DNA of 64,000 nucleotides, from assembly GCA_918797485.1 (NCBI GenBank), contig CAKKNE010000004.1, forward strand, positions 1,612,001 through 1,676,000, given 5' to 3'. Positions within the stretch are counted from its first letter, which is position 1. Every line of letters starts with the position of its first letter. The notes below the pieces were generated by a model that saw nothing but the letters and a program-made list of their open reading frames with translations, ran no database searches and had not been told where the DNA came from. A program made the position numbers and the translations under genes. Positions 3,512-61,727 of this stretch are shown here, one piece after another. Source of the stretch: Pelagomonas calceolata (Eukaryota).

Positions 3512-3687
3512 TGCTAGTGTCTTACAGGCCGCTAGCTGCGCGCCAGACTCTAAGTTCTGATTTGCGGGATCGGCGATGAGTCAGCGACGATGAGGCAGTC
3601 TGAGGGGGTGTCGCTCCGGGGTGCGGCTTCCAGGGCTTCCCGCGCGTGGAGGAAATCCCGCGGCTAGCGGCCTGTAAGACACTAGCA
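3512..3687. mobile_element. MITE-like element with 25-bp perfect terminal inverted repeats
   Basis: TGCTAGTGTCTTACAGGCCGCTAGC at 3512-3536 and its exact reverse complement at 3663-3687; no clear target-site duplication (TSD). Confidence 0.7.
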
Positions 3688-4010: not shown

Positions 4011-4156
4011 GCGCGTGGCTGTACGCTCAGGCTCATTGCGCCGCCAAAAAATAAAATCAACGTTAGCCTAAGGCTAAGCGCTTGACCCCGCTATAAATTT
4101 CGAGGTTTCCACGGAGCCTAAGCGTCGTAGGCTACTAAATCATTCTAATTAGAGCT
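4011..4156 (-). mobile_element. Fragment of MITE family A, inverted orientation
   Basis: The reverse complement aligns to the 5' part of the copies at 13432 and 30355 (AGCTCTAATTAGAATGA...GACGCTTA...GAAATTTATAG..GGGTCAAGCGC...GAGCGTACAGCCACGCG). Confidence 0.75.
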
Positions 4157-4429
4157 CAGGCTCACTGGCAGGCTCACTGGCACTGGCCCGGGCAGGCTGG
4201 CCCGGGCCCGAGTCTACGAAAGCGTGTCGAGCTCGATGGCGACGAGCGAATCCGCGCTCCCGCAAGACGCTGGCGAGCGCGCCGCCGCGTAGACACCAGT
4301 CCTTATCCTAGTCTACCTTTCCGAACGCCTAGGTATTGTCTAGCCCCCCACATTTTGTCCAAATTATCAGTGGACCGGTAACAAACTCGTAACCATCGCG
4401 ACTGCGCGCCGAGGGCCTGGTGGGCTGAC

Positions 4430-6225
4430 ATGTCACGACAGATGATCGGAACCAGAGGCAACTTGACTTCGTCGATGGGAACTACCGCTGCCCAAGGGGT
4501 TGCCTTAGGAACGGCGGTTAATATTTCAGAGCGCCCTGTGACACAGCAGGGCATGCGAGGCATGAAGACTACCCACGGACCTGCACGAAAAGTTCAAGAT
4601 TCTTCTTATTATGTTGGTGTTCTCCGGAATAAGGTCAATGTTCACCCGCCGTACTTACCCGGAACACATCTTTAGGTGACTGAGTTGACTACCGAAATCT
4701 ACAGTCTACAAACAGAACATAAGCAACATGAGCGATCAGTGAATGAGCATGGCGGGCTCCAAAAGCACCATGATAGTCTCTTGAATCGAGTGCGCATTCT
4801 AGAGGGTACATTGGCCGATTACAATCTAGCACTGGACAAAGCCCGTGTTAGTACGCACTAGCGTTCGACCAAATAAAATATAAACGCAGAACCTTCCTAT
4901 TGATAGGCACCGACCCAGTGGAACTGGACGAATATATATCAGGATTCCGAGCTAAAAACAAGCAATTTGCCAACGAAGTTGATCGCATATTTGTGATTAA
5001 AAAACAAAAAGACGAAGAGACTAAGAAGCTGGATACACAGATTCAGGAAGTGCATGAGCTCATTCGCTGCAAGATAGCAGATCTTGATACAGACAAACTG
5101 GCTCTATACAGCCAACTTTTGGGATTTTCATTGGAGCTTTCTAAAAAGCAAGATGTGGCTCTCGCAGATGTTGATAGTCTCATTTCCCAAGTGGACAACG
5201 ATAGCGGTGATCAACGACAGCATTTCTCTGATGATTACGCACAACTTTTGAAACGCCACACGTGGCTACAAAAAGAAGAAGGGAGTCTTGCTGAGGAGGT
5301 CGCCATCTGGGAGTTGTCAGATCCCTCTGAAGCGCTTCTCAACCTCAAGCACCGTGTTGAGGCGCAATCGAAACAGATAAGGAGGTGTGAGGAATCTACA
5401 AGAAGACTCCGGGAGCAAATTGAAGCTGCGCAAACGCAACTGGCTGAGTTTCACGACGAGATGAAGGAACGTAAGGTCGAGGCAAGTAGTGACAGCGAAA
5501 AATATGAGAAGTTAAGGCAACGTGAGACTGAAATGAGCCAGTTTATATCGCAATTTGAGGCTACACGTGAGTTAGTAGCTCAGGATCAAGTGCAAGCCCA
5601 GGATACGATTGCAACGCTGTTGGAACATATATCGCAAGGACTTGAGCAGCGGAGCTCGATGCCGTCGCAGCAACGGCTACGAGAGATGCGCGACGAAGCA
5701 AGCTTCAAGGAACGTCAACTGGAGTCTAGCCAACATACAACGTTGAGACTCACCCAAGAACGCAAGCAACGCGAAGCAGAGATGGCTAAGATTGAAACAT
5801 TAGAGGAAAAAATCCAAATCGAACTTAGTTCACTACAGCAGAAGATGAAAATGATGCAAAGCGATATGATTGAGTTTGATGACGTAAATGGTCTTCGTAA
5901 ACGCGCGTCAACCACAATGACTGCTCTATCGAGGCTAATAAAAGAGTACCAAGGTCGTCGTGAATCAGTTAAGTGCCAGGTGACACAACTGACATCCAAG
6001 TATGAAGCATTAAAAGGGAAAATTCAGTCTTCAGAAGCGGCAAGATCACTATCTACGCTAGAAGCAAAACTACGCACATATGGTCAGACTATATTTCACC
6101 TTCGAGAATACGCTGAAACGAAAACTCGCGAGACAGACTACACGCTACTTAAAGATTCCTGTATGGCTACTGTCGAAAAGCTAAATACTCACGCTAAGAC
6201 AGCAGTCAACATGGGTCATCTTTGA
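4430..6225 (+). CDS. IFT74: Intraflagellar transport protein 74
   Basis: RPVTQQGM motif, VQDSSYY..LR.K, LADYNLALDK and a long coiled coil. GT-AG introns 4634-4675 and 4851-4906 join three ORFs in frame. The 5' end is uncertain. Confidence 0.9.
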
Positions 6226-6712
6226 TTCAAGGTAAACGCCATACATTGCAATGCCACATGCAGCGTAATCTTTGGAGTCTTAATCATTAAATAATGGCAT
6301 GCGCGGGAAAGCGTAGCTTTGTGTTACTACAAAAGACAGCAAGGATACCAAAAAATACTAAATAGATTGTGCGTTTGTGCATCACGCAGAGGCAAGTGCG
6401 GCTCGGGTGCCTATGCCTAAAGAAATATTGTACCCTAAGCGCCCTCGCGTTGTGCTGCTTGAGGAATCACAATACGGAGGCCCAGGGGTTGAAATGCCGA
6501 ACAATTCCCCTTCTGAAGTTAGAAGACGGCCTTCAAATTCCAAAGGCCTAGCTGGCTGCGATTAGTACGCGGGTGGAAGCAAACGAAGAATCAAGCATAG
6601 CGTTCCTCGAGTCAAAGCTTGAACGACAAAACTCGCCACAACTGAGCTTGGGGGGTGGCTCACACCACGCCGGGGCATCCGTGCTAGGCTGACAATCGCC
6701 CGTAGTAGTATA

Positions 6713-6799
6713 TGAAGTAGAGCCCATTTTGCATCAAAACGGACGCTCACGGGAAAAGCCGTTCGCTAACCGTTTGGATGCAAAATGAGCTCTACTTCA
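6713..6799. repeat. Long inverted repeat (hairpin) with 30-bp arms and 2 mismatches
   Basis: TGAAGTAGAGCCCATTTTGCATCAAAACGG ... CCGTTTGGATGCAAAATGAGCTCTACTTCA. Confidence 0.8.
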
Positions 6800-7641
6800 A
6801 TTATATTACGACCGAAATCCATGGTTCTGGGTGGCCGATTTTGGGGGTCTAATGAAGGGGCCGGACCCCACCTTGGGGATTCCCTCCACCGAGCGCCCGA
6901 AGGGGGCGCATCGGTCGGGGAGACTCGTAGGGCCCTCTTAAGGGTCGGCTGAGGTCAGGGTGGTGTATGGGGATCGGGACTAGGGCGCAGCGGCGCGCTG
7001 AAAACGGCAAAAACCCGTGAATCTCGATTAAAGGCGATTTGGTTTTGGCCTCGTGCGCAGCCTAAACGCACCCATAGGCAGCCCCAAGCTATTTCTGACC
7101 GCTCAAGGGGTCGGCCGAGGCGGTGCGCCAAGAAAAAGCGCGGCAGCACAACATTTCGCGATGCGCCAAATCGCTCTCCTACCACATGATGTGCGATACG
7201 CGATGTGGGCACGCCACTGCACAAAAAGCGGTGCGGACAGTACGGTGGGTATGCCCGGAGGCCCGCGGACAACTTCAGGCGCTCGAAAAGCTGGAAATCA
7301 TTGCACCGCGGCGGCCGCGTCGAGGTCGACGCGGGACGAATATGACGGCAGAGTACTCCTAGCTCAAAAGCCATACGTCTGGACCATTTACTGAACTCAG
7401 CACTGTTCATGTGATTTCCAGGGAATGCTTCTAGTGAATCCTCGTCCCACCCAAGTGGTGTTACTTGTCGTACTCAGGCTAGTAAGCGTTTAAATGTGAA
7501 ACATTTAGGCTAGTGTAGTACTAGGGGGTATATTCTTCGCAAGGTTTCCGGAAGTCACAGGTCTCCGACTTATATCCGCAACCCCGGCACCGTCCCCTGC
7601 TAAGCTCAGGAATGTGACCGAGGCTTGCCTTTCACTGGTAT

Positions 7642-7687
7642 TACCGTAGGTACCTACGGTACCGTACCGTAGGTACCTACCTACGGT
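7642..7687. repeat. TA-(CCG/CGG/CC/GG) array containing a 20-bp perfect palindrome, upstream of the SET gene
   Basis: TACCGTAGGTACCTACGGTA at 7642-7661; related arrays at 31961, 38637-38792, 53527-53559 and 61767-61807. Confidence 0.8.
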
Positions 7688-7747
7688 TTCGCAATGTGGA
7701 CACGGTACTGCGGGTTTCGCAATGCGGACCCATGCTGCCCCTAGGTG

Positions 7748-10923: not shown

Positions 10924-13431
10924 TATAAATGGACGCGTATAGAGGACGCGCAATTACGCCCTAATTTCCCCCTATCGTCCCCCAGTCGCAATCGTACCTA
11001 CTGGAATTTCCGGTGTTCGCCCGGGTGAGTGAGCAAAGTCAGATAAACAAAATAAAAAAAGTTGAAAAAAAGGAATAATTTCAATAAATAATAGGAACTT
11101 GAGGACCTCAACTTGAAAAGTTTTGTCAATGACAAAAATGCCTCCGATACGCCCACACATTTTATTTAGCAACGGCGAATACCCACCTAGCTAGGACTGA
11201 CTGAGCAGGGGCCACTTGGCGAGTGCGGAGAAGGGAGGAAGGAGAGGAGAGGAGGCTAAATGATAATTAATCGTCGTGTTAATTAATCGTCGTGCCGTGC
11301 CCTATGGACGCTTTGAATAAGTCCCAGCCCCTGTGACCTTTTAGCGCACGGATTTCGGTCGCCATTGGCCCGGGGACCCGCGGTTGGTAATAATAGCTAG
11401 TAGTATAACCACAGGAATCCAGCGGTGACGACGTTTCTCGCCTCACATCTCAAAAGAAAGAAACGGGATGGACCTGCCTCAAGTTTAATTAACAGTCTGA
11501 AGTGCAGTCTTCTAAAGGAATGTATAACCGAAAAGGAAAAAGGGCCGGGCAGGTTCGTGGATTTTGTAACGAACACTCATTCAACATCGCCAGGGGGTTG
11601 ATTGATTTACTTGGACCACGGAGGCACTTTCTAACGAATTTCCGAGCCATGAACCGCCTTACGTTAGAGCCTTACGTCACGAAAGAACTGATGCGTTGCT
11701 GCGAGTTTGGGGGAGTGCGGCGAGTTTTTGTCTTTCGGGCGGGGCGGGGGGGGGGGGGGGGTTGCGCCAAGATTTGGATATCCCAGACTAAAGGCCCAGA
11801 GGAGGGACACCGAAACACCAAAAATTTGCCGTATCTCTATAACTAGAGGCGTCCCTGCTGACCTAAGTGCCAGTGCAGTTCCCGCGGGCCGTGTCTGGCG
11901 TCCGATCCAGCCGCGCCCACGCATTCGCCCAAATTACCATAGGATGGCGGGCTACTTCGCGACCGCGTCCTGCCGCAAAAGTGATCCATTCCTTCCCGCA
12001 CATGGTCTCCTTGGGAGTCCGCAGCCAAATCTCAAATTAGCCCCCTACGCATGCCTGGTCTAGCGCACATCTCCTCGCAATTCAGGCCAAAGCCCCTGAA
12101 TTCCCTCCGGTCCCGGGATACCGAAAAAAAAAGACTCTGCGCAGCTGTCATAAGGGGATCTTCCCATAACGCTGTTTCTTCCTCTGCGCGGACCCCGGAG
12201 GGCGCCGCGCCGCCCCCAGCGACCCGCAAAGCGGCGCCATAAGCTCGACTAAGCTGCTTTTTATGGCCGCCAAACTGAGTCTAGGGATGGACGCACGGCT
12301 ACACTGCCCTCGAAGCAGACAGGCGCCGTACTCTGTTGATTTCTTATGTGTTTTTGCTGAGGTACCGATCGCTACTCCCGCGTGTCGATAAGAAGGTCTA
12401 AGATTGTTGATTTTTTTACAGGCTCCCACAGGGGCCCTAACGCCTCCGCCTCCGTTGCCTCGGCAAGACCAGGCGAAGCTTGAAAGCGCACCACTAGTTC
12501 TAAAATCCAACGCCACGGGCCTCACTCGGACGGCCCAGGGTGATAGATCGTTTGACTGGGGAGCCTTTCTCGATGTAACTAGTGGGCTGGTGGCTGGATT
12601 TCTGGACTCGCCGCATACCTTCTAAATCTTGCCCAAGACAGAATGACCCCGTTTATGTTGTTCCTGTTTGGTTGCGTGTGACCGTACAATGCGCATCTGA
12701 AGCGATGTGTGCCGCACGGTAGTTCGACGCGCATTTGACCTCGGATCTAAGATTTTGTCTAGCTACTTGTCTAGCTAGGTTAATTTTTGTTGTCAAACAA
12801 AATTCCAACATCGTGAACTCGCGTGCTGCGCGCCTTAGGACTTTGCGCTCTTTAGCTGCGCCGAGTTATCACGCCGTTGTCCGCGGCAAAGCGAAATTAG
12901 AGCCTTAACTTTTTGCCTCAGCCGTGGCGCCGCGATTTCCCGGTAGACTCGGCGCCGCGGCCGCTCAGCATGCGTGTTTGACCCCGCGTAAGTTTAAATA
13001 TACGCGTTGTTGGAGTACCCTCTCAACCGCGACATGATACCGTGGCGCCGGGATCTGCCGAGCGTCGCCCTTGGTGACATAACCGTGGGGACTGCAATGC
13101 CCCACCTGTTCACAGTGAGCTGACCTTCCAACTCAATGTCAAGGAGACTTTTCCTCTGAGCCGTCCCCACGTTCGGCTCGTGCCGGCATCATGCCGTGGA
13201 TCGCTACCGGCAACGCGCGATCGTGCCTCACTAGGGCCTATTCAGTAGACCCGGGCGGGATGACTGACCCCCAATAGTAGTACTAGATAGTACCCATTGG
13301 CTGCTGATATGACTGGGCGCGCCTATAAATTACCGATATTGTGCGACTTGTGTTTTAATGCTAAGACACTGGAGCAAGGCTCTGATTCTTAGGGTCACAC
13401 GGTCGTTACCAGCTGCTTAGGCTCTGTTCCC

Positions 13432-13943
13432 TAAGGCCGGAAACCGGTTAATTCTTTGGAGTAAGATTCTTCCTTACCTTTCTTGTCTCTAATCAGAATG
13501 AAATTAGACTGCGACGCTTAATTAAGACTCCTTGGAGACTTCGAAATTCATAGGGGTCGAGCGCAATAGTCGACGTTGGCAGGTTTTTGGCCAATTGAGC
13601 GTACAGCCACGCGCCGACCAAATGGCGGCAAATTTTTGCTAAGGCGCAGGCTCCGTATGCTAAAATAATGGGCTGTGCAAAGTTCGGTTTACTGTGGGCA
13701 GCCTCGCGCTGAAAAATCAGCTGCGACGCGGTGCGATGATGCGTGGTCAGATGCCAGTGTGAGATTAAACCCGCCCCAACCATATCGCTCCGAAAGACGG
13801 TCCGGGCGACGGTCCGAGATAAACCCGCCGAAAACCAATCTCTCCAACGGACGGGATAAATCGGCCTCTAATTATCCACTAATTATTTCCTATTGTTCCA
13901 TATCTATGTAGGGCTGCTAGTGAATATCCGGCTTCCGGCCCTG
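13432..13943 (+). mobile_element. MITE family A, full-length copy (about 510 bp) with hAT-like CAGGG-type termini
   Basis: Left end TAAGGCCGGAAACCGG and right end CCGGCTTCCGGCCCTG form an imperfect TIR. It is collinear with the copies at 30355 and 54778. No TSD is recognisable. Confidence 0.85.
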
Positions 13944-22982: not shown

Positions 22983-23178
22983 GAGCGCCGCCGCGGCAGA
23001 TACGGTCTGGATACATATCCTCGAGTTGAAAGCACCCTTCTTGTCGATCCGTTGCCTGCCGCTGGATCGGGGTGGCCCGGGCGGCATCAAGATGACTCTG
23101 ACTTGGATAATCAGGCTACTGCTGACAACGACGACCCCCACCACGACCCCCCCTTACGTAACATGCCTTGAGGCTCCG

Positions 23179-23894
23179 CCCCGATTTCGGTTGCCGTGAG
23201 GCTCCGCAGGGTTTGATATCGTAGTGCAGCTCCGATTGTGGCTTGTAAAGGGTTGCACTTGTCCTCAGTCCCGAAAGTCGTCGATTTATTGATGTCGCCG
23301 CGTAGGCCGAGAACTTCAAATCGGACTCTCGCGACGCAAGACGGCCACTACGATACGCCAAGATGACCGTAGCTTCGCCCGGTCGTAGCAGGATAGCAGC
23401 CGCGCGGAGGGCAGCTACTGCGCACGCCCGGCGAGATTCGTGCGTACGAAGGTGGGGATTCACCTGTAGCTGGATCTTGGCGCTACGTGCGTCCTTTTAT
23501 ATGCCGAAAGCCGAGTATCCCGCATTTCCGGGCGCTCGGGCAGCCCGAATATCTCGTTTATTCGGCCTTTTCTCTTAGGTAGGGGGGGGGGGATCAAAGT
23601 GACCCCCCCGATTTCGGTTGCCGTGAGGCTCCGCGGGGTTTGTCCTCAGCCCGAAAGTTACTAGTACTAGATAGAAAGTTATCGATTCACTGGATAGTTT
23701 TTTTTTTGACGCCGCGTACGCCTAGTACCTCGAATCGGTTTCTCGCGACGCTAAGGCGGTCACTATGATACGCCAAGATGACCGTAGCTTTCAGCTATGC
23801 CACTTTTAGCGGCTATGCCCGGCCGCTTTTGGCTATGCCACCGTGACCGGGCGTGCGCAGAAACTGCCCTCCGCGCGGCTGCTATCCTGGTACG
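23179..23894. repeat. Diverged local duplication (23179-23431 and 23606-23894) with an internal inversion
   Basis: Direct matches CCGATTTCGGTTGCCGTGAGGCTCCGC and GATACGCCAAGATGACCGTAGCTT; 23384-23431 is the reverse complement of 23847-23894. Confidence 0.85.
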
Positions 23895-28232: not shown

Positions 28233-28754
28233 GTTCTGGGACCTCTGTCTTTGAGCCTCTATAGCCCGTGGTCTCCTCGATAGTGAGCTGGCACATCCAA
28301 GTCGAGTGTGTATACCGTGACTTTCGCAACACTATGCGTTCCTCATTTCAAGTTGATGCTGGACCCGGAAGTTACTAGTAGATGCAATAATACCGGGGTC
28401 GTATGACAAATGGTGACGGAAGGGACCGGATGATGATATAGTTGTAGCATTCACCATTTTCGAGATTTTATTTAGAGGCCGATTAAGCCCTATTTGCTGC
28501 GCTCATGGGACAATGATAAAAAACGACACAACCGTGACCAAAAATTACCAAATATATATAATTTAAGACTGGATTTCGAGCTAGCCTTATCGTTCGCTCC
28601 CAGAGAAGCGGCCCAGACCAGTAGATGCTCTTCAAGTTTATTATTATTAATAGTAACCTCAGCCTGACTTGGCCAAAATGGGCACCTCCGACTCGGACTC
28701 GGAGTCAACTTGAACTTGAAAGGCCCGGGCCCCGGCGGGCGGCCGGGCCCGGAT

Positions 28755-28805
28755 GCACTTCCGTGGCAAGCTAGTGTCGCTGTGTGCTTAGGATGCCCCT
28801 GGGGC
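28755..28805 (+). repeat. Repeat family C fragment; second copy at about 61344-61408
   Basis: Shared GGCAAGCTAGTGTCGCT...AGGATGCCCCT; the second copy carries hexamer insertions. Confidence 0.7.
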
Positions 28806-29122
28806 CAAACGGGCCAAGTTTCCGGATTAGGGTTCTCCCGATCGGCCGCGAGTCTGGCTTGCGACGGCCCGGGGAGGCCCGGGGCAGTGACCGTGACCGT
28901 GACTCGGACTCGGCCGGGCGCCTGAGCTGAGCTCCAGTCACGGTGAATAAAAGTGACACAACTTGGTACTTGTCTTCTCATACAGTATAAAGTCCCTGAT
29001 ATTTCAGAACCCCCGAGGCTCTTGCCCTTCTACTAGTGGGAGGACCGGGTGCGCATCGGGCAGTATCCAGGTATCTTTGACCTGTGCCCTGCTGGTGGCA
29101 TCTTGCCTTTTTATACTTGGCA

Positions 29123-29837: not shown

Positions 29838-30354
29838 ACCGAGGTGGCGGAGCTGCAAAGTGACCAGCGGCAATATTTTGCTCAAGACTATGACTCGCCC
29901 AAAGCCAACGCTATAGACCAGAGTCTGGAATCAGCTGCCTGAACGTCACGTCTCCAGTACTATGCCAATAGCAGAGAGTTACCTTCCCCCTATTTGATGC
30001 GCAGATGCATACGTGACTAAACTCGACAGAATGAGCATTATCGAGACCGCGAGTTTGATGTTGCCAGGAGGCTTAACTAGTATGAAACATCCTCCTTTCG
30101 TGGTCACATTCGCATGGGACTGTGCCTGGCATCCAACACTACGGTCCCACTCGACCCGGGCTCGTGGTCTAATGGGGTCCACGGCTGAGATAGCGTGCTG
30201 CCAATGCCGTGGGTTGCCAACACACTTTTGAACTTCGCCGAAATTATTGCAAACCCCCTGCTTTGGCACCAGTTTCCCGGGCGGTATAGTACGAATATTT
30301 TTTTTCCTATCGGCGTTCAAGTTCCGGGCAATATTTACATAAGGCCCAAGTCCC

Positions 30355-30934
30355 CAAGGCCGGACATCGGTTAATTCCTTGGAGTAAGATTCTGCCTTAC
30401 CTTCCCTTAGCTCTAATTAGAATGAAGTAGCCTGCGACGCTTAAGACTCCTTGGAGATTTCGACTCGGAACTTGAAATTTATAGGGGGTCAAGCGCAAGT
30501 CGACGTTGGCAGCTTTTGGCGCAATTGAGCGCACAGCCAAATGCCGACCGAATGGCGGCAAACTTTTACTCAGGCGCAGGTTCCGTATGCTAAAGTAATG
30601 GGCTGCCACAGTGTGCAAAGTTCAAGTTTGGTGCCAGTGCGGCGGTGCGGGCCGCAGCCTTGTGCTGAAAAATCAGCTGTGACGCGGTAGGAGGCTCAGC
30701 TGGAAACCCGCGAGCTCTGGAGGCCCGGGGCTCGTCGCCCGTTGATTTATCTTTTGCCTTAGTCTACTCTGACACGGCACGATCATACTATGATCATACG
30801 ATGGCCGAGATAAAACCCGCCCGGAAACCAATCGCGCCAACGGACGGGATGAATCGTCCTCTAATTCACCACTAATTATTTCCTATCGCCCCATATCTAT
30901 AGGGCTCCTAAGGAACATCCGATATCCGGCCCTG
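30355..30934 (+). mobile_element. MITE family A, full-length copy carrying several small insertions
   Basis: TIRs CAAGGCCGGACATCGG and CCGATATCCGGCCCTG; collinear with 13432-13943. Confidence 0.85.
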
Positions 30935-32008
30935 CTTACTAGTAAGGCCCACTGGCAAGAGGGACTCCGAGTCCGAGTCGGAATTTCGGGGTTGTCACTG
31001 TGTCTAGGTCGAATTACTCTAGGGCCAGGCGTTACAGTGCACACATCAGGCCAGCGCCCGGACCTGATCATAGCTTGTTGAGGGATTCAAGTTGCCAGTG
31101 CCAGTCACGGTGGTACTTCAGCGATCTATCATGATGATGATAATGAGTCGAGTCGTGGCTGAAGTGGCCCAGGGTTTAATTCAAGCTCGGCCTGCAGCTT
31201 GGAGGTAGCAGAACTTGAACCTTGAAAAATGTTGTAGAAAATAAAATTTACACTCAGGCTGTAAAAAATGCCGCGGCTATTTGGAAGTGTGGTTGCCGGT
31301 ACTTTCGCCCCGGGGACCGGAAGGCGCCGAACAGTGGCAATATTCACCGATCATCTCCTCGAAAGTCGCAGCTCACTGGACGTATTGCTTTTTACTGCTT
31401 TTTGCTCTAAATTTTTTAGCAAGCCGATAATCATGATCATGATGACTTTCAATGTCGTAAAGAAATTCAAACTTAGCCTGAGGGCCTATATAGCTTGAAT
31501 CGAAAATTCTAAACGGGCCTCAGGCTATAACACCCTATGATCGCCCAGACATCCGGAGAGAAGTACTACTAGCCTGGGTTCCTGCGGTTGCGTAGGTCAG
31601 TAGGATAGGATGAGTAGCTTACTCAGGCTAGTCACGGCCCGGGTACTACTAAGCGCTGACGTGATCTAGGCTAGCCACTTGGCTAGCCGCGGCATCTGAA
31701 AATCTCGAGCCAACTAGGGGAGGGATAAGGTAGATCACGCGCATTGCTGACTCGGAGATTCTGTGTTTGCAAATATAGCCTTGTGTTCCGAGTCAAGTTT
31801 CCGAGCTTCAGGCTGCCGGCGGCGGACGACGCCCCTCCATGGTTACCCCTAAGAGTCCTGCGAGGAGCCTCCGCGCTTCCCGGGCAAACTTAAGGTGTTC
31901 GCCCTCCCTGCCCTGCCCTGGAGAGGGCTGGGACTTTAGATTGCGGCCCTACTGATCCCGCCTACCGTAGGTAGGCACATGTATCAGGGCTACATGGCGG
32001 CGGGTAAA

Positions 32009-36671: not shown

Positions 36672-38878
36672 CAATGCCGTGGGTCCTGTACTATTTCTCG
36701 AGGCGCGGCAGAAAGTCGGGTGGTGAAACAATGCAATTCATAGCGGATATCTTAGGTCCCCTTCCGACCAACTCGAAGATGGTTCCGCCCGCCGCAAAGT
36801 ACGCCGCGTTCTCCCATTAAAGAGTGCCAATCTGAGTAGGACGTATATACGATTTGGGGAGTACTACTAGTAGCCACGACGCCAAACCAACTTGGCAAGA
36901 TCCATTTCCCTAACTTGAACTTATCCCTATCTATTATCCCTCTCGGCCTATGCAGGAAATAAGTAGGGTGCGGTGGTATACCGACCCCTTGCAACGGTGT
37001 GAGTGAGTTTGGCGTAAGTGACTCCCCGTGTAATACTAGCACTAACTTGAAGAATGAATGTGGTGTAAACCTTCATTACGTCAAGGTGGGACTAAGTAGG
37101 AGAGAAAGAGGGGCCTAGTGTAGTACTAGGGGGTATATTCTTCGCACTCCCCCTGGACCTTGATATGGTTTGGTTTTTCCTTTTTTTTTCAGTTTGATGA
37201 GTAGAACTTCTGTGTCTACTCTATCGTCACGGTGTGAGCCACAAGCAAATAGTGCCTTGTGTGGTTCGTGGTCGGTGTGTCTAGAGTAATTCGCGGACAT
37301 GAAAGGTCCACAGGGAATATAACCCTTGTATGTAACGAATTGGGGACTTAATTATGTTCAGTCATCAAAGTGTGTCCTCATAGAGTCATTTTCTTCTCCT
37401 CTCGTCGTATCAGATTGATCCATCGTTGTCGGTGTTTTCATGTTGGTTCGAGGCTTTCTTGAAGACGATTGAGGGGGTTGCTCTTTAGCAGGTGTCTTAG
37501 GTTTAGTTTTTGTATCATCTGATGAAGACGCAGCCTCAGGCTGCCAGAGAGTATTAAGATTCGCAGGGTAATTTATCTTAATTAGGACTCATGGAGGATG
37601 TGCCAGTGTCAATTTCTTATCCGAAAAAATTACCCGGGGTTACTCGGGCCATATTGTCCGTCTAGCTAAGCAGTCTGGACACTTATCCGAGTCAGTCCCA
37701 AGACTAAATAGACTGAACCTAGAACTAGAACTGTGTGCCAGACGCGTCATCGAGCAGAACGCGCCATCGAAGCAGACAGGCGGGACGCGAATCAGGATGG
37801 GTGGGACGCGGAATTTGGATCTTCCTCAGGCTCATCAGCTGGACGCGGCAGCGAGCGGCAGCGACGGTTGCGATGCCCTGCTAGACGCGGCGTCGGGGCG
37901 GCGTGCACTGCCTGGGTCGCCGGGTCCACCGAACTTCCCGACCCGCCAAAGGCCTCAGGCTGCCCCGGGCCGCACGTCTACCCCGCCCCCAGTGTCTGGC
38001 ACGAGGCTCGAGCGGCAGCGGGCTCCGCGGCCTCGGACTGCTGGCGCCACCTGCTCGACGGCAGATGTATAGACACGAGTAAGATACACGAGTTGACTTT
38101 GGGGAGGGCTGGGCGCGGCGTCACGGTTGGCGACTTGGGGCAGCGTTTGAACAGCCACTCCTGTAAATATGAGTTTAATGAGCTCAGTCGAGTGTCGCTA
38201 GCGTGGCGCACTCACAAAAAACGGGAGCACCGTCACCCGAGACCCGGGGCCTGGGGTGTTGTTCAAGCTCATCTTTGTATGCGACTCGGAAGTATAGTAT
38301 CAGCCAGCAGCCCGAGTGCGGGCCCGCCCGGGCCGGCGGCTTCTACTTGAAAATAAAATCGAAGGTGAGTTTGTACCGCTAGCTCTTAGTGTTCTTCGCC
38401 GCTCGCCCTTTCAAGTTCAAGTTGTACTACCGTCTAAAAGCGCTCAGGCTCCTCAGGCTCAACCGTGAACCCCGGGGCCTTTGATGAGCACCTTTTTAAC
38501 CGTCGGAGCCGATGCTGCCGCGAATCTGCCGCCGACTAGGACCCCGGATCAGCTCTCACCCGACTCTACCCCCGGGCCCCGGGCCCGGCGGGCCAACCCG
38601 GGCCGTAGTGAGGCTTGCACATTGTGGACATACAGCGTACCGTAGGTACGGTCTGAGTCCAGGTACCGTCTTAGTTCGAAATAACTATAGTCAATTCGGG
38701 TTTGGGGGTGCATACGCCTAGGGAGGGGTGTACCGTCTTAGTCCTACTGCGGTACCTACGGTATTGTATCTAACCTACGGGTACCTACGGTATGGTTGAG
38801 CAATAAACGATTTGTCACATGCCCATGCTGTTTTACATAAATTTGTCCGTGATATAAAGATCAAACTACAGTAGCCGC

Positions 38879-45730: not shown

Positions 45731-48502
45731 TCTATATGACAATTGAATTGACGTCCTAATAGTAATAAGTCCTGCCTGTTCCTCTCTTTTTCATGTCGGT
45801 TTGGCATAGAAATTGGCCCTCATGTCCACCCAAACGGGAGAAAGTGCCAAGCGCGGAATTGTTACGATTCGGCATTGATTTTTAACAGTGTGACTGTGGC
45901 AACTTGAAAAGATGTTGCAATGATTTATTGCCGGGTAAGCTAGCAGGGCAGGAGCGACTAGGCATGGGGGCAGGCCGTGACGAACACTGAGGCAGTGGCT
46001 GTGTGACTCGGGAGAGACAAAAGTCAGCTTCCAAGCAGGTCCCGCGGTGCGCCTTACTAAGAATGAATTGATAGCGAGATTTGGCAAATGGGGATCGAAG
46101 GCGGGTGATTTTGAGGTGCGCTCAACATAATCCACACCCATTCTTGAGCGGCCTGGAGCCTCCTGAGTCCTCGCCTGAGGGCGGGTCAGCCGGCCTAGAC
46201 AGCGGTCACGGTGAATCATATATAGATTCTTATATGCTCTACTCCGTACGTGTTGGCGTCGCGCTATCTCCGTAACTTGAAGATGGTACCTAGAGTACAC
46301 CACGACCCATTGAAGCGACTTTGCGACGGACCTGGGACGGGCCGCAAACTGCCATGTTCGGGCCTCTGCTATTGGAGAGCAAACGACCGATGATGATATA
46401 AGATGAGCCAGTTTTAACACCATTTTTAACTTGTAGGGGGGGACACCCAAAACTCGAATTTCTATGACTCCTCCCGGGACCCCCAGCGTCGTCACCATGC
46501 TTTAGAGGGACCTTAGTAAGCTGGGTTTGACCCAGGGTTGATAACAAACGGATCGGATGGCGCAAAGTTATGGGCGGTAGACGCCTACGTTTTTTATACG
46601 CGTTTTCGTCAGGAGGCCGAGCGCGGTCAGTGATGATACCAGGCGCTTTCGATACGGTCGTAGTGACTGGGAAAGCATGCCTGGTCTCGTGACGCCGCGA
46701 TTGTGACCGTGAGTGAGTCGATGACAATCTCGGCCGAGAACGAGTTCGGGCCTAAGGCGCGTTCCACAAGGACAGGGGCGTCTCACGTCGTGCGTGTCGA
46801 CCGGGGAGCCACGCGCGAATGCGCTGAGGTAAGAGAAACGCAGTCCCGTCGCGTCATTTGCCGATACAGCTGCCCCATGCTGCAAATGGGGCTGCTGCGG
46901 GCCGCGGCTGGCGCAACTGACGCGTTCGCAGCGTCCGCAGCATCGCAGACCGACGACAGGCCACGCGCAGATGCCCAATGTGGGCTCTCCCGGCCCGCCT
47001 TTAGCAGGCAAAGCCCCGAGAGCATCTCCTCAGGGAGTGTCGCCAAATTTACCAAACTGCCAGATTAGTTTGGACCAGCGGTCTAGCGACGGAAAGACTC
47101 CTAGGGAGACGCCCCTGGACGCTTTCCGTCAACTTTCCTGCGGTCCAAACTCATTGCCTCCCGCCAGGACGACTCAAAGTTCGCTAGAGCTATCGTAAAA
47201 TACCCGCACGTTACGACCACTAGCCCCCCCCTATTTTAAGATTTTAGAGGTCAATTTAGCCCTATTTGCTTGCTCATAGGACAATCGACCTCAAAATCAT
47301 AAAAATGATATAACCACCGGATGTATAGTAGGCTGGGGGACCGGGCTCTTAGTGGGGGGGTGTGGGGGGGAGGATAATGTGCATAACGGGGGTCAGCGTC
47401 TGGTGCGCGAGCAAATCGAGAATAAGGGGCCTACTTCTTCTACTTACCCGTCTAGCCTGACCAAAACGGACGAGCGAAACGATATCTGGCAGCCCCGGGC
47501 CATCGTACCCGGCCGCGCTTGCGAATGACTACGCCATTGGTAACCAGGGCCCCTGGGAGCGAATTACCAGCATAGAGACGAGTTTGATTTTTCAGCTCGA
47601 GCCTAGGCCCCATGACAGCTCAGCTGGGCAACTTCACGCGACCGCGGCGTCTCGTTGCGAAAGTAACCCCTCCCCACCAGCCATATTTGCCCTCGGCCAA
47701 GTGGCTGTGAACTCGAATCTCAAATTAGGCCCCCCGGCTAAGGCTTCTAGGGTGGGCTCCCCTTTCCAACCAAGTTACGTACTGTGGATCATACCTAAAT
47801 TAAGGAGGACCTAAAAAAGAAGGAACAAGTCCCTAGAGTCTTCTCCCTGCTCGGTCAGGATGCCCAACACCCGTTTTGAGACTATCTGGGCTCGCGCCGA
47901 TTGACAGCTCCGCAGAGAGTGGCTACCCCAAACTTGAACGCTGCCAGTGTCCCGTGGTCCGAGCCAATTGCTAGTTGCGTGCTGCTGCGAGCAATGTGTG
48001 CGCTTATGCGCCGCTCTCGTGTTGCTTTTGGCTAGCTTTATGGCTACCACAAGTTATTTTTACTACTAGTACGCTCTGGCTGTGCGTCACACAAATTACG
48101 CGTAAATCACGGCGCAATCTACGCGGGGCCGTTCCTCACGTAAAAATGCTTTGCGTAGACTGCACACCATAGGAAGATCTCCCTCGGTCATACGCCGTGC
48201 GTCAGGGCAAATCGAGTGTAAACTAGCCAAGAAAGCCTCGCGTTCGTTGAGTACGCTAACTTGAAAAAAAATTACGGGCGGGATGACGGTCTAGGCGACG
48301 TGCACTACAGCACTACAGTTTCGTCCCTGTCTGCGTCGGCCACGCGTTCTGAGAGATAGGTACTGTGAGGGTGCCCCCTTGGCCAGGGTGTGTTCTTGCG
48401 TAAAACGGCGGCGGGAGTTGCACCCTTGCTGCACTTTCAAGTGTAATTGCCTGGTTTGTGGGCTGCTAGTGGCAGATTCGACACTTATCATCGCATATAG
48501 AG

Positions 48503-53400: not shown

Positions 53401-53758
53401 CAATACGATGATGGCTCCATGCCGGGACTTGATACAGGTTTGCGGCAGATGGAGCTACCGTGGAACGTATATCACCACAGTGAAAGAAATCAAATAAAAT
53501 CCTGCGGTTACCTATCCCGATACTGATACTACGGTACCGTAGGTACCTACGGTACAGTAACTTTACAGCGATTGTGCTATGATCCTGTAGTTACCTTTAT
53601 CTAGAGCTCCTCTCAGGTTCTAGTAGATATCAGAGGCTAGTGGCCTGTATCTTAGGATACTTCCTTCTCCCTCTTAACTCCTTTATTCCAATCATGATGA
53701 TTCTGTCTGGCAGGGTTGAGGGGCCCAGGCCCGGGGTTCCCACACTCTCACGTTTCAG

Positions 53759-54144
53759 CTAGGTTGCCATTTACCTGAGGGGTTTTTTACCCCTGGCGCC
53801 GCCCGGGGTTAATAACCCGGGTAATTACCGGTCAGTACGGGTAATTTACCCCAGAATCTTATAGAGGGGTCACGGTAGGGGAGGGGGCCTCACGGGCCAC
53901 TGGCGCGGGCCTGGGCCGCGCCGGGCCACATGACTTGGTACTTGCCTTGGCGCACCTGTACGTATCCAAAAGCTCAACGGGCTGCTTGCGCCCATCCGCT
54001 CGTCCGGAGGGGTCTTCGCTAATCTCACTAAACGGGTTTAGTCGAAAACCCGTCGGGTTATTGGGCGGGTTATTTACCCCGGATCCCCTTCGAGGGGTAA
54101 TAACAGGTAAATTGCCGGTTATTAACCGGTTAATGGCAACCTAG
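53759..54144. mobile_element. Intact non-autonomous hAT-type element (386 bp) with an 8-bp TSD
   Basis: TIRs CTAGGTTGCCATT and AATGGCAACCTAG; TSD CGTTTCAG at 53751-53758 and 54145-54152; subterminal TTACC/GGTAA and GGGTTA repeats. Confidence 0.9.
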
Positions 54145-54777: not shown

Positions 54778-55414
54778 CAGCGTACAGCCACACGCCGACC
54801 GAATGGCGGCAAACTTTCGCTGAGGCGCAGCTTCCGTATGCTAAAATAATGGAAAAAGGTATAAACTCCTTCAGGGTCAGCTGCCCTGAAGGCAGCTATC
54901 CCATGGTTTTTATTATACAATATTTACGTGCGGGTTTTCGCCCCCCTCCACGCCCCCGGAAGGGGCGTGGCTATGCCTAGTCTAAGTGAAAGCAACTTAG
55001 ACCTAAAGAGAGGCTGCTTTGACCATGGTTTCCCCCCAAAACCCGAAATCAGTGGTTTATAATAAAAAAGTCTTAAACCCGAACCATCACCCCCCACGCC
55101 GGATTTGGCACCCTTGCGGAGCAGCCCCCGGCAGGGAAAAAGGCATGAACTCCTCCTGGGTTAGCTGCCCTCAGGGCAGCTGACCCTGAAGGAGTTTATA
55201 CCTTTTTGTTGCGTGCAAAGTTTGGTGCATGCGGGCAGCCTCGCGCTGAAAAATCAGCTGCGACGGTACGAGGTCGAGATAAAACCCGCCCGAAAACCAA
55301 ATTTCTCCAACGGACGGGATAAATCATTGAATCGGTCTCTAATTATCCACTAATTATTTCCTACCGTTCCATATCCATATAGGGCTGCTAGGGAATTTCC
55401 GGGGTCCGGCCCTG
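54778..55414 (+). mobile_element. MITE family A copy (5'-truncated) interrupted by a nested element
   Basis: Family A sequence stops at ...GCTAAAATAATGG (54852), resumes at about 55213 (GTGCAAAGTTTGG) and runs to the TCCGGCCCTG terminus. Confidence 0.85.
54853..55207. mobile_element. Nested foldback/MITE element with 46-bp TIRs
   Basis: AAAAAGGTATAAACTCCTTCAGGGTCAGCTGCCCTGAAGGCAGCTA (54853-54898) versus its reverse complement at 55162-55207, with one mismatch. Confidence 0.88.
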
Positions 55415-60791: not shown

Positions 60792-61727
60792 TCGTGCTAA
60801 TGGATTGCCATGGATTATGCACAATCTCACAAGGACGACCACTTAAGTTGTCATTGAAGCCACCTTGAGTTGCAATACACCAGCAGTCAGCTGAAATCGA
60901 CAAGCAAAATTGGCTCTCGAGGATTTTGCAACCTGATAGTGCGGAGCACTGCTCTGTCCAAAAAATACTTCCCAGATAGTACTTGATGTATAATATTTAG
61001 GGTTTTGGTGGTGTTTTGATCGCATGTTTTAAGACTCCAGGGCTTCTCCAGCCGAACTCTTGGAAGTTGGAACTGCATTGGGTACGGGGTTTGAAATCGA
61101 ATCTGTCTGCGCGTAGGGTAGAATGTGGATGAATGACCCAGCGCGTCCGGTCCGAAGGGGCCGAACCAGACTAAATTGCGGGCTGTAGCGCCTCCCCTTT
61201 ATAGCCCGAACGGGGAAACTTACTGCGAATGGGCCCCAGGGGTGCTCCACATTCTGGCCGAGTGTGGAGCCCTAAAAGGCGAGGGGCCGGAAGGGCCCCC
61301 ACGCGAACATCGCGCCAGTGGCGTTTCGTGCAGGACTCGGAGACACCTCCGGGCTGAGGCTGAGGGCAAGCTAGTGTCGCTCAGGCTGTGGGCTAGGATG
61401 CCCCTTGGACCCACGGCCACGTCACTGTACGGTGGTAAACTGATCATGACCGCCGGTCTCGGCCCCGGGCCAGGCTCCGGCGGCTCCGAGTCAGGCTGTC
61501 ACTGACACTCAGGCTGGCCCGGGCCCGGCACGGCGGTACCCACTGGCACCGTGACGGCGAGAGACTGAGCGTGACTTGTTGTTCAAGTTCAAGCCTGAGT
61601 TTGGAAAAAATGTGACTTGAAATTGCCAGTGAACTAGAGGCAGGGGCAATAGTAAACAGTGTACACTCAAATTTTAGAGAATCATGGGAAGATACTAGTA
61701 CATCCCAGGGTAGGGAGGGCTAGAGGG

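Follow-up and report, generated by a model that had tools for sequence, protein, structure and literature searches.

What left the series of short inserts that interrupts a non-coding repeat near 30 kb in this DNA? The window (the whole 64-kb stretch that was analysed) is a gene-dense eukaryotic contig of 51% GC, whose genes include those for a Na/Ca exchanger, MutL, OGT, a kinase, Cas1p, BRCA2, CD36, a bromodomain protein and a V-ATPase subunit, the last with its best named homologs in an MMETSP entry (74%) and in Aureococcus anophagefferens (70%); on this ground the window is treated as pelagophyte DNA. The repeat is a copy of family A, whose copies have the traits of MITEs in that they are short, non-coding, multi-copy and equipped with TIRs. 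At the 30-kb copy the TIRs are imperfect and about 30 bp long (CAAGGCCGG…/…CCGGCCCTG), the homology to family A extends left to 30342, and there is no ORF of 120 aa or more. In three metagenomes the depth over family A was 236-526, whereas the next gene had about 35-60, as is characteristic of a multi-copy sequence. No TSD was recognisable at either the 13-kb or the 30-kb copy. Family A is only the substrate of the inserts, and nothing ties it to making them.

A preliminary description of this copy had aligned it to its relatives and argued for serial insertions, and all of the strings that it quoted are present at, or within one base of, the positions it gave. The insert region (30459-30481) reads TTCGACTCGGAACTTGAAATTTA, while the 13-kb family A copy reads TTCGAAATTCA at 13540; the insert at 30464-30475 is missing from the inverted 4-kb copy as well. 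Further along, positions 30623-30628 read CAAGTT and 30630-30640 read GGTGCCAGTGC. The copy, its inserts (here termed scars, with the number of bases gained) and comparable forms elsewhere in the window are as follows.

30354..30935, unstranded: repeat family A copy, non-coding, about 580 bp, the substrate of the scars
30462..30469 (insert 30464-30469), unstranded: +6 scar GA-C-TC-G-GA, present in every haplotype covering the site
30469..30476, unstranded: +6 scar AA-C-TT-G-AA, polymorphic, missing from loci L003, L004, L005 and L010
30604..30613, unstranded: +8 form TG-C-CA-CA-G-TG, TGCCACAGTG, an unmerged join or a +6 scar plus 2-bp slippage
30621..30628, unstranded: +6 scar TT-C-AA-G-TT, from the family A copy alignments
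30632..30639, unstranded: +6 scar TG-C-CA-G-TG, polymorphic, missing from L003, L004 and L005
30639..30643, unstranded: +3 form GC-G-GC (or CG-G-CG), missing from L001 and L003-L005
30651..30655, unstranded: +3 form GC-C-GC, from alignment and string check
4026..4033, unstranded: +6 scar CT-C-AG-G-CT, CTCAGGCT, in the inverted 4-kb family A copy
61380..61387, unstranded: +6 scar CT-C-AG-G-CT, CTCAGGCT, not in the paralog at 28775-28790
13394..13403, unstranded: second +8 form, GT-C-AC-AC-G-GT, not polarised

The hexamer inserts follow a single rule, by which a dinucleotide XY becomes XY-C-rc(XY)-G-XY (+6), rc being the reverse complement. Octamers of this form number 154 in the 64-kb window, compared with 19.6 expected from 30 order-3 Markov simulations, and the intergenic DNA contains 131 of them in 24,309 bp against 8.2 expected (a 16-fold enrichment of the +6 form; the maximum in 30 simulations was 17). 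All 16 dinucleotides are represented among the octamers window-wide, the middle dinucleotide is rc(XY) for every one of the 16, and the spacer C and G are constant in all scars. Octamers with A/T spacers in place of C/G were counted in the window at values near expectation, and a window scan of 1- or 3-base words with C..G spacers found no comparable excess. Versions with CC, GG and GC spacers are elevated about 2.5-fold (54, 47, and 53, respectively), an excess due mostly to triplet repeats rich in GC and to tandem scars read out of register. The dinucleotide TA is the target of 7 of the 131 intergenic scars, matching its frequency. Intergenic octamers with one mismatch are only mildly raised (243 compared with 184 expected), which indicates that most scars still present arose recently on the time scale of point mutation. 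There are 141 removable scars in the 24 kb, amounting to about 3-3.5% of intergenic bases. An equal load was found in the sister species locus L006 (51 octamers in 8,845 bp), and more distant, GC-richer loci are without excess (e.g., L014, 6 octamers compared with 7.5 expected). We conclude that the hexamer insertions are real, young and abundant.

Their direction and timing were assessed from paralogs and from a metagenome scan that gave 49 loci, of which nine are conspecific (L001-L005 and L007-L010; 99-100% protein identity) and two, L006 and L012, represent a sister species (92-94% nucleotide identity in the gene); the remaining loci are more distant. The conspecific loci are counted as at least four haplotypes and not as nine independent ones (several come from a single assembly project, and L004 is almost identical to L005). 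Among the matches listed, near-identical DNA occurred in 20 runs from 11 studies, 3 of them possibly source data, and gaps of 6, 12, and 24 bases were present in the metagenome read alignment. The view that the motifs are insertions and not deletions is supported in two ways. The 13-kb, 10-kb, 55-kb and inverted 4-kb copies, together with the L006 copy, are without the inserts wherever they cover them. In addition, when each of the nine conspecific loci was aligned pairwise with the window (retaining plus-strand HSPs of at least 60 bp with >88% identity; L006 was treated separately), 91 indel rows were obtained, 17 of which are of six bases, the commonest length after one base. Fifteen of these 17 rows obey the rule and, as two of the 17 represent one event, this corresponds to 14 of 16 six-base events. 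The preliminary description had named inserted hexamers that mostly break the rule as the outcome that would speak against it, and the opposite was seen. Random 6-bp deletions are rule-like by chance in 3.8% of cases, and those between 2-bp repeats in 21.6%, so that the two deletion models give P = 1e-18 and P = 4e-8, respectively, for 14 of 16. Two of the 14 rule-obeying events copy an existing hexamer and are possibly the result of slippage.

The events in the 30-kb copy were serial, as had been proposed, based on the fact that ACTTGA is missing in L003, L004, L005, and L010 where CTCGGA is present, CCAGTG is missing in L003-L005, and the +3 GGC is missing in L001 and L003-L005. The CTCGGA insert, the +8 form, CAAGTT and GC-C-GC are common to all haplotypes covering them, and two of the five events of the copy are still segregating. 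What looked like a +5 allele at 30634 in L003 was rejected, as it is the allele without the insert. The very high turnover that had been claimed for this region stands as a rate of about one scar per 16 SNPs (226 distinct SNPs in 7,223 non-genic bases), concentrated in clusters.

The 31,052 bp of long ORFs contain 7 octamers, about what chance would give, and whole gene spans contain 19 compared with 9.4 expected, several of these being in apparent introns or 5' parts. There were no rule indels in the genic alignments of the nine conspecific loci, and no indel in gene alignments with the sister species obeys the +6 or +8 rule. The earlier suggestion that scars could add residues to proteins is therefore not sustained. 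The 600 bp upstream of hand-placed gene starts have 7.8 compared with 3.7 scars per kb. Intergenic scars are also clustered, with 54 of 120 having a neighbour within 20 bp compared with 21.7 expected (2,000 shuffles, maximum 42), and where scars with differing XY are nested the hexamers peel off cleanly in turn. Two regions exemplify this.

4150..4215, unstranded: nested scar cluster, 66 bases reduced to 18 after 8 successive rule-hexamer removals
28680..28940, unstranded: scars densely clustered upstream of a small gene, 11 of them removable, with three polymorphic gains in other haplotypes

Distances between scar pairs in the window peak near 150-180, 300-360, and 480-510 bp, and the best period is 168 bp (p = 0.002-0.003, cluster-preserving shuffle, window only). 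The period was not reproduced in the smaller L006 set (27-42 clusters, p 0.46-0.65), and CpG periodicity in coding DNA has no clear peak near 170 bp. A spacing of 168 bp possibly reflects the nucleosome repeat, with the linkers being targeted. The dinucleotide CG is avoided as a target: 9.9 cases were expected among the 131 intergenic scars and 3.9 among the 51 of L006, with none in either, and 1 of 58 new contexts in the conspecific loci is CG; blocking by methylation and decay of CG scars are candidate ideas for this. Haplotypes L002-L010 have many intergenic deletions or replacements of 250-950 bp relative to the window at 29850-31990 and 36675-38878. Such changes could erase old scars.

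Since the two central bases invariably mirror the target, they are templated by the flank. The C and G are constant while the neighbouring bases are free, which argues that they were not read from the site: a C before and a G after the octamer occur together in 11 of 154 cases, about chance, and all six flank positions are free. The two bases are most simply explained as the terminal bases, one from either end, of an element that makes a 2-bp TSD. Each hexamer was probably left behind when a cut-and-paste element with C…G ends and a 2-bp TSD inserted once and was excised again. A hairpin-type excision, which the preliminary description had favoured, fits the form of the scar, and we put the probability at about 0.7 that a 2-bp-TSD element left its own terminal base in a flank hairpin. 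Insertion of the element would give XY-[C…G]-XY. The transposase would then nick the two non-transferred strands at a point one base within the element, with the terminal C staying on the flank, and the flank 3'-OH would attack the opposite strand at the element border, so that the flank closes into a hairpin tipped by C while the transferred strand remains full-length. A host nuclease would open the hairpins two bases past the tip to give 5-base 3' overhangs (XY-C-y'x' on both sides), the last two bases of which would pair (2-bp microhomology), and filling of the gaps would produce the +6 form. Where XY is palindromic, the overhangs could overlap fully around a C:C mismatch and give +3.

The hairpin path thus predicts +3 products at palindromic XY only. 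We counted C/G-centred +3 forms alongside A/T-centred controls after removal of the +6 scars. In the window, C/G forms at TA number 59 compared with 36.6 expected (A/T control 0.79x) and those at AT 51 compared with 30.4 (control 1.14x), there is no excess at GC or CG, and non-palindromic words show no specific excess (1.13x compared with 1.19x for the control). In L006, TA forms are at 1.58x compared with 1.31x for the control, and AT forms are not raised. The prediction is partly borne out, and the +3 half-forms of the preliminary description hold up as a class enriched at TA and AT but not at GC, the case that it had cited. Its use of the +8 form as proof of unmerged hairpin arms fared less well: there are 2 such forms compared with 0.6 expected, and a +6 scar plus 2-bp slippage is equally possible since 2-base tandem duplications are common among the conspecific polymorphisms.

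Other routes to the same octamer have to be weighed. The same element and TSD could act with no hairpin, in that both strands would be hydrolysed as in Tc1, a 1-base 3' C would be left on each flank, and a repair polymerase would fold back and copy two bases of its own strand before the ends anneal; a variant of this combines a flush hairpin with a non-templated dCMP. The product would be identical and fits every count, a covalent hairpin and fold-back synthesis on a 1-base overhang are not separable by sequence, and element-derived footprint bases are typical of Tc1/mariner elements in the accessible text of one source (PMC4561436). Fold-back synthesis would, however, be expected to vary in length, and such variation is missing: +4 forms (XY-CG-XY) number 149 compared with 160 expected, +3 forms at non-palindromic words have no specific excess, and +5 forms are only about 1.4x up beside the 16-fold rise of +6. 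We consider this route unlikely. A non-mobile break-forming enzyme (host, viral or domesticated) whose cut is staggered by 2 bases and which also caps the ends and adds a C is distinctly improbable. The tight clustering and nesting of scars (54 of 120 compared with 21.7) suggest repeated hits at the same spots, and no transposase or filled site was found, as such an enzyme would lead one to expect; against this, three of its steps have no explanation, the lineage does contain an element with C…G ends and a 2-bp TSD, and active DNA transposons abound in the region. Linker-biased insertion is moreover reported for Aureococcus DNA transposons in the part of the source that is accessible (PMC9860276).

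Two further explanations have very little left to recommend them. Octamers that are ancestral or selected motifs, such as protein-binding sites, with the differences between copies arising by deletion or slippage, would accord with the enrichment upstream of genes (7.8 compared with 3.7 per kb) and with the two of 14 polymorphic events that copy an existing hexamer and may be slippage. The octamers are not in paralogs or the outgroup, however, all 16 self-consistent words occur, the deletion models give P ≤ 4e-8, and nested scars with different XY are impossible by slippage, all of which makes this account very improbable. The geometry of Ac/Ds acting on a 4-bp C-N-N-G target, or a replication template switch, would also give +6; at a C-XY-G site the same octamer follows by algebra, with the end base of the flank lost and its complement at the tip, and Ac footprints are described as having at their centre the base complementary to the adjacent one (PMC5873905). 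Both versions need a C before and a G after the octamer, and the chance-level 11 of 154 refutes them, leaving this account scarcely any credit. Excision through a flank hairpin that keeps the terminal base of the element is thus the reading that we prefer.

A search for the element that might have made the scars (C…G-ended inverted repeats with 2-bp direct flanks) had one outstanding match, a 573-bp sequence at L006 5783-6355 with a TIR that is identical at 20/20 positions behind the first five bases. Its ends are CACTT-CGACCCC… and CACAA-CGACCCC… (CAC…GTG) and its TSD is CC/CC; alternative bounds of 5788-6350, with a TSD of TT, also fit the rule. The window contains a related sequence.

23139..23601, unstranded: degenerate copy of the candidate family, with ends CACCACGACCCC… and, on the other strand, CACTTTGATCCCC…

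This copy shares both end types with the intact L006 candidate, its interior is weakly similar (local score 39), and its flanks, CC and AC, do not form a clean TSD. In X2, the run containing the window, the interior of the candidate is represented by many short contigs with a summed depth of 300-2600, and bin depths suggest that one contig (~6323-6356) runs through the terminal GTG. The other three runs contain interior parts of the candidate only, with no joint skipping the element; over the four runs, the terminal GTG was covered in one and the left end was without cover in all. Filled and scarred alleles at one site were not found among the large indels of eight loci or in the four candidate-aligned runs, there was no Pfam match to a transposase (for an EnSpm/CACTA element, a DDE enzyme with C(2)C and H(3-4)H motifs) in 36 window ORFs plus 17 further ORFs of the loci and window, and the candidate-element patterns had no match in viral contigs or prokaryote genome contigs. 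The sole match of the family A pattern was an unrelated virus contig (L050), which was rejected.

The candidate has the traits of EnSpm/CACTA (CMCT) elements, namely CA…TG (CAC…GTG) termini, and its TSD (CC/CC in L006) and the 2-bp duplication of the scar both lie within the CMCT range of 2-5 bp; from these we infer its link to the scars. The likeliest maker is an EnSpm/CACTA-like (CMCT) family with CACTT/CACAA ends, to which we give about even odds. This assignment is a lead and not a membership because no transposase was found and because the large insertions that differ between haplotypes are of another kind: those in L007, L008, and L009 were rejected as makers, having 8-bp TSDs and A…T ends. 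A pair at 46773-47117 (GA flanks, CAGGGG ends) was set aside because a larger repeat encloses it. Looser screening for CAC…GTG ends (16/25 matches) gave mostly noise among the matches listed.

Several other repeats were observed. The polymorphic sequences at L007:9060-9844, L008:16811-17315, and L009:19059-19563 have 8-bp TSDs and asymmetric AAGGGG…CCCCGT ends. In L001 there is a 12-base gain at window position 30494, with an 8-base duplicate around AA+GT, which may be a footprint of elements with such ends. A 355-bp element with 51-bp TIRs (AAAAAGGTATAAAC…) and no clear TSD is nested in a family A copy (window 54853-55207), and an element at window 53759-54144 with CTAGGTTGCC ends and an 8-bp TSD (CGTTTCAG) lies inside a 7-bp palindromic flank. 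Small inverted-repeat elements at window 3512-3687, 6713-6799, and 23389-23889 are unclassified, and an exact 32-bp repeat occurs twice 29.6 kb apart (7510-7541 and 37115-37146). A second motif class, with polymorphic 9-base indels, is present at window 7640-7695, 38635-38795, and 53530-53555. The forms TA-CCG-TA and TA-CGG-TA occur 9 and 6 times compared with 1.1 each expected, and TA-CC-TA and TA-GG-TA 13 and 11 times compared with about 5; the class as a whole looks like footprints of TA-specific Tc1/mariner-type elements. Gene order also varies, with a NUBPL-like gene upstream of the kinase at L005:1-2458, unlike the window, and the kinase inverted relative to the window at L006:3287-5350.

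Joined into one reading, an EnSpm/CMCT element working in a third hairpin register, scars as a leading source of small indels, linker phasing of ~168 bp and CpG avoidance make up an account that we hold tentatively, at somewhat less than even odds. If it is true, the scars are a fossil map of enzyme chemistry and chromatin. The scars also offer a marker of past transposition, of the style of end joining and possibly of nucleosome position, and show that departed transposons can be a large, countable class of mutation. A scar that is both stereotyped and abundant gives an exact predicted cut position for a 2-bp-TSD element. The host alga is abundant in marine metagenomes, and standard repeat annotation would miss the scars. 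A literature search, mostly of papers open without subscription, returned no account of the +6 rule or of such scars in pelagophytes, and footprint sequences were absent from the accessible text of 10.1101/2022.05.23.493040, PMC4015899, PMC9940879, PMC12312487, and PMC3193017. The newness of the cutting geometry is provisional, as C/G-retaining footprints of 2-bp-TSD elements may already be described.

Among known systems, pelagophyte genomes have their own DNA transposons. In the accessible part of PMC9860276, the Introner MITEs of Aureococcus prefer nucleosome linkers, have 8-bp TSDs and stay as introns. Unlike these, the sequences described here are exit scars and are kept out of coding DNA. 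Tc1/mariner and Stowaway elements target TA only. They leave element end bases and a 2-bp duplication, as far as the accessible text shows (PMC4561436). The present scars share neither the TA target nor a fixed middle, since any dinucleotide serves as target and the middle mirrors it.

The hAT elements are closer. Ac/Ds excision is described as leaving varied footprints (28 types in 128), at the centre of which lies the base complementary to the neighbouring flank base (PMC5873905), and the hAT TSD is usually 8 bp (PMC12730594). The scars resemble the products of hAT elements (Ac/Ds, Hermes), as portrayed there, in having palindromic, flank-templated P-bases of the kind read as opened flank hairpins joined by microhomology. 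They differ from them in that the tip base is always C and is not dictated by complementarity to the neighbouring flank base, only 2 bp instead of 5-8 bp are duplicated, and one product dominates.

The flank hairpin of RAG is flush. In RAG/Transib and Muta1 a first nick leaves a flank 3'-OH that forms a hairpin, which the host opens, and our proposed path is alike in this (PMC5499845, accessible part). The hairpin of Muta1, a MULE, is given there as 43+43 nt of flank, i.e., flush, and the same part of that paper groups hAT, Transib and RAG with Muta1 and does not mention EnSpm or CMC, so that flank hairpins are documented in it for hAT, Transib/RAG and MULE elements. The scars are unlike those expected of RAG/Transib and MULE enzymes in having one extra, element-like base at the predicted hairpin tip, where a flush cut would leave none.

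In their ends and TSD length, EnSpm/CACTA and other CMCT elements, including PlavakaB, match the candidate, the C and G of the scar and its 2-bp duplication; the accessible parts of the sources give CA..TG or CAC…GTG ends and 2-5 bp TSDs for EnSpm and the CMCT clade (PMC12730594; PMC3193017). Of about 32 empty-site clones reported for Arabidopsis Pack-CACTA, which has the 3-bp TSD AAG, we examined 14. They comprise AA-TT-AAG (4), AA-AG (4), AAG-CT-AG (2), and one clone each of AA-CG-AG, AAG-AG, a deletion and an intact site (PMC6379663). Unlike in our scars, C and G are both kept in only one of these 14 clones, and flush P-bases occur in four. Judged by these clones, excision of plant CACTA resembles a hairpin process with largely flush cuts. 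This argues against a generalisation and sets the geometry of the present scars apart. In our own framing there would be a third hairpin register, with hAT cutting at +1 into the flank, RAG and Muta1 at 0, and the present system at -1. The scar is best filed as a hairpin-type excision footprint in its action, with a tip base that is neither that of hAT nor that of flush-cutting enzymes.
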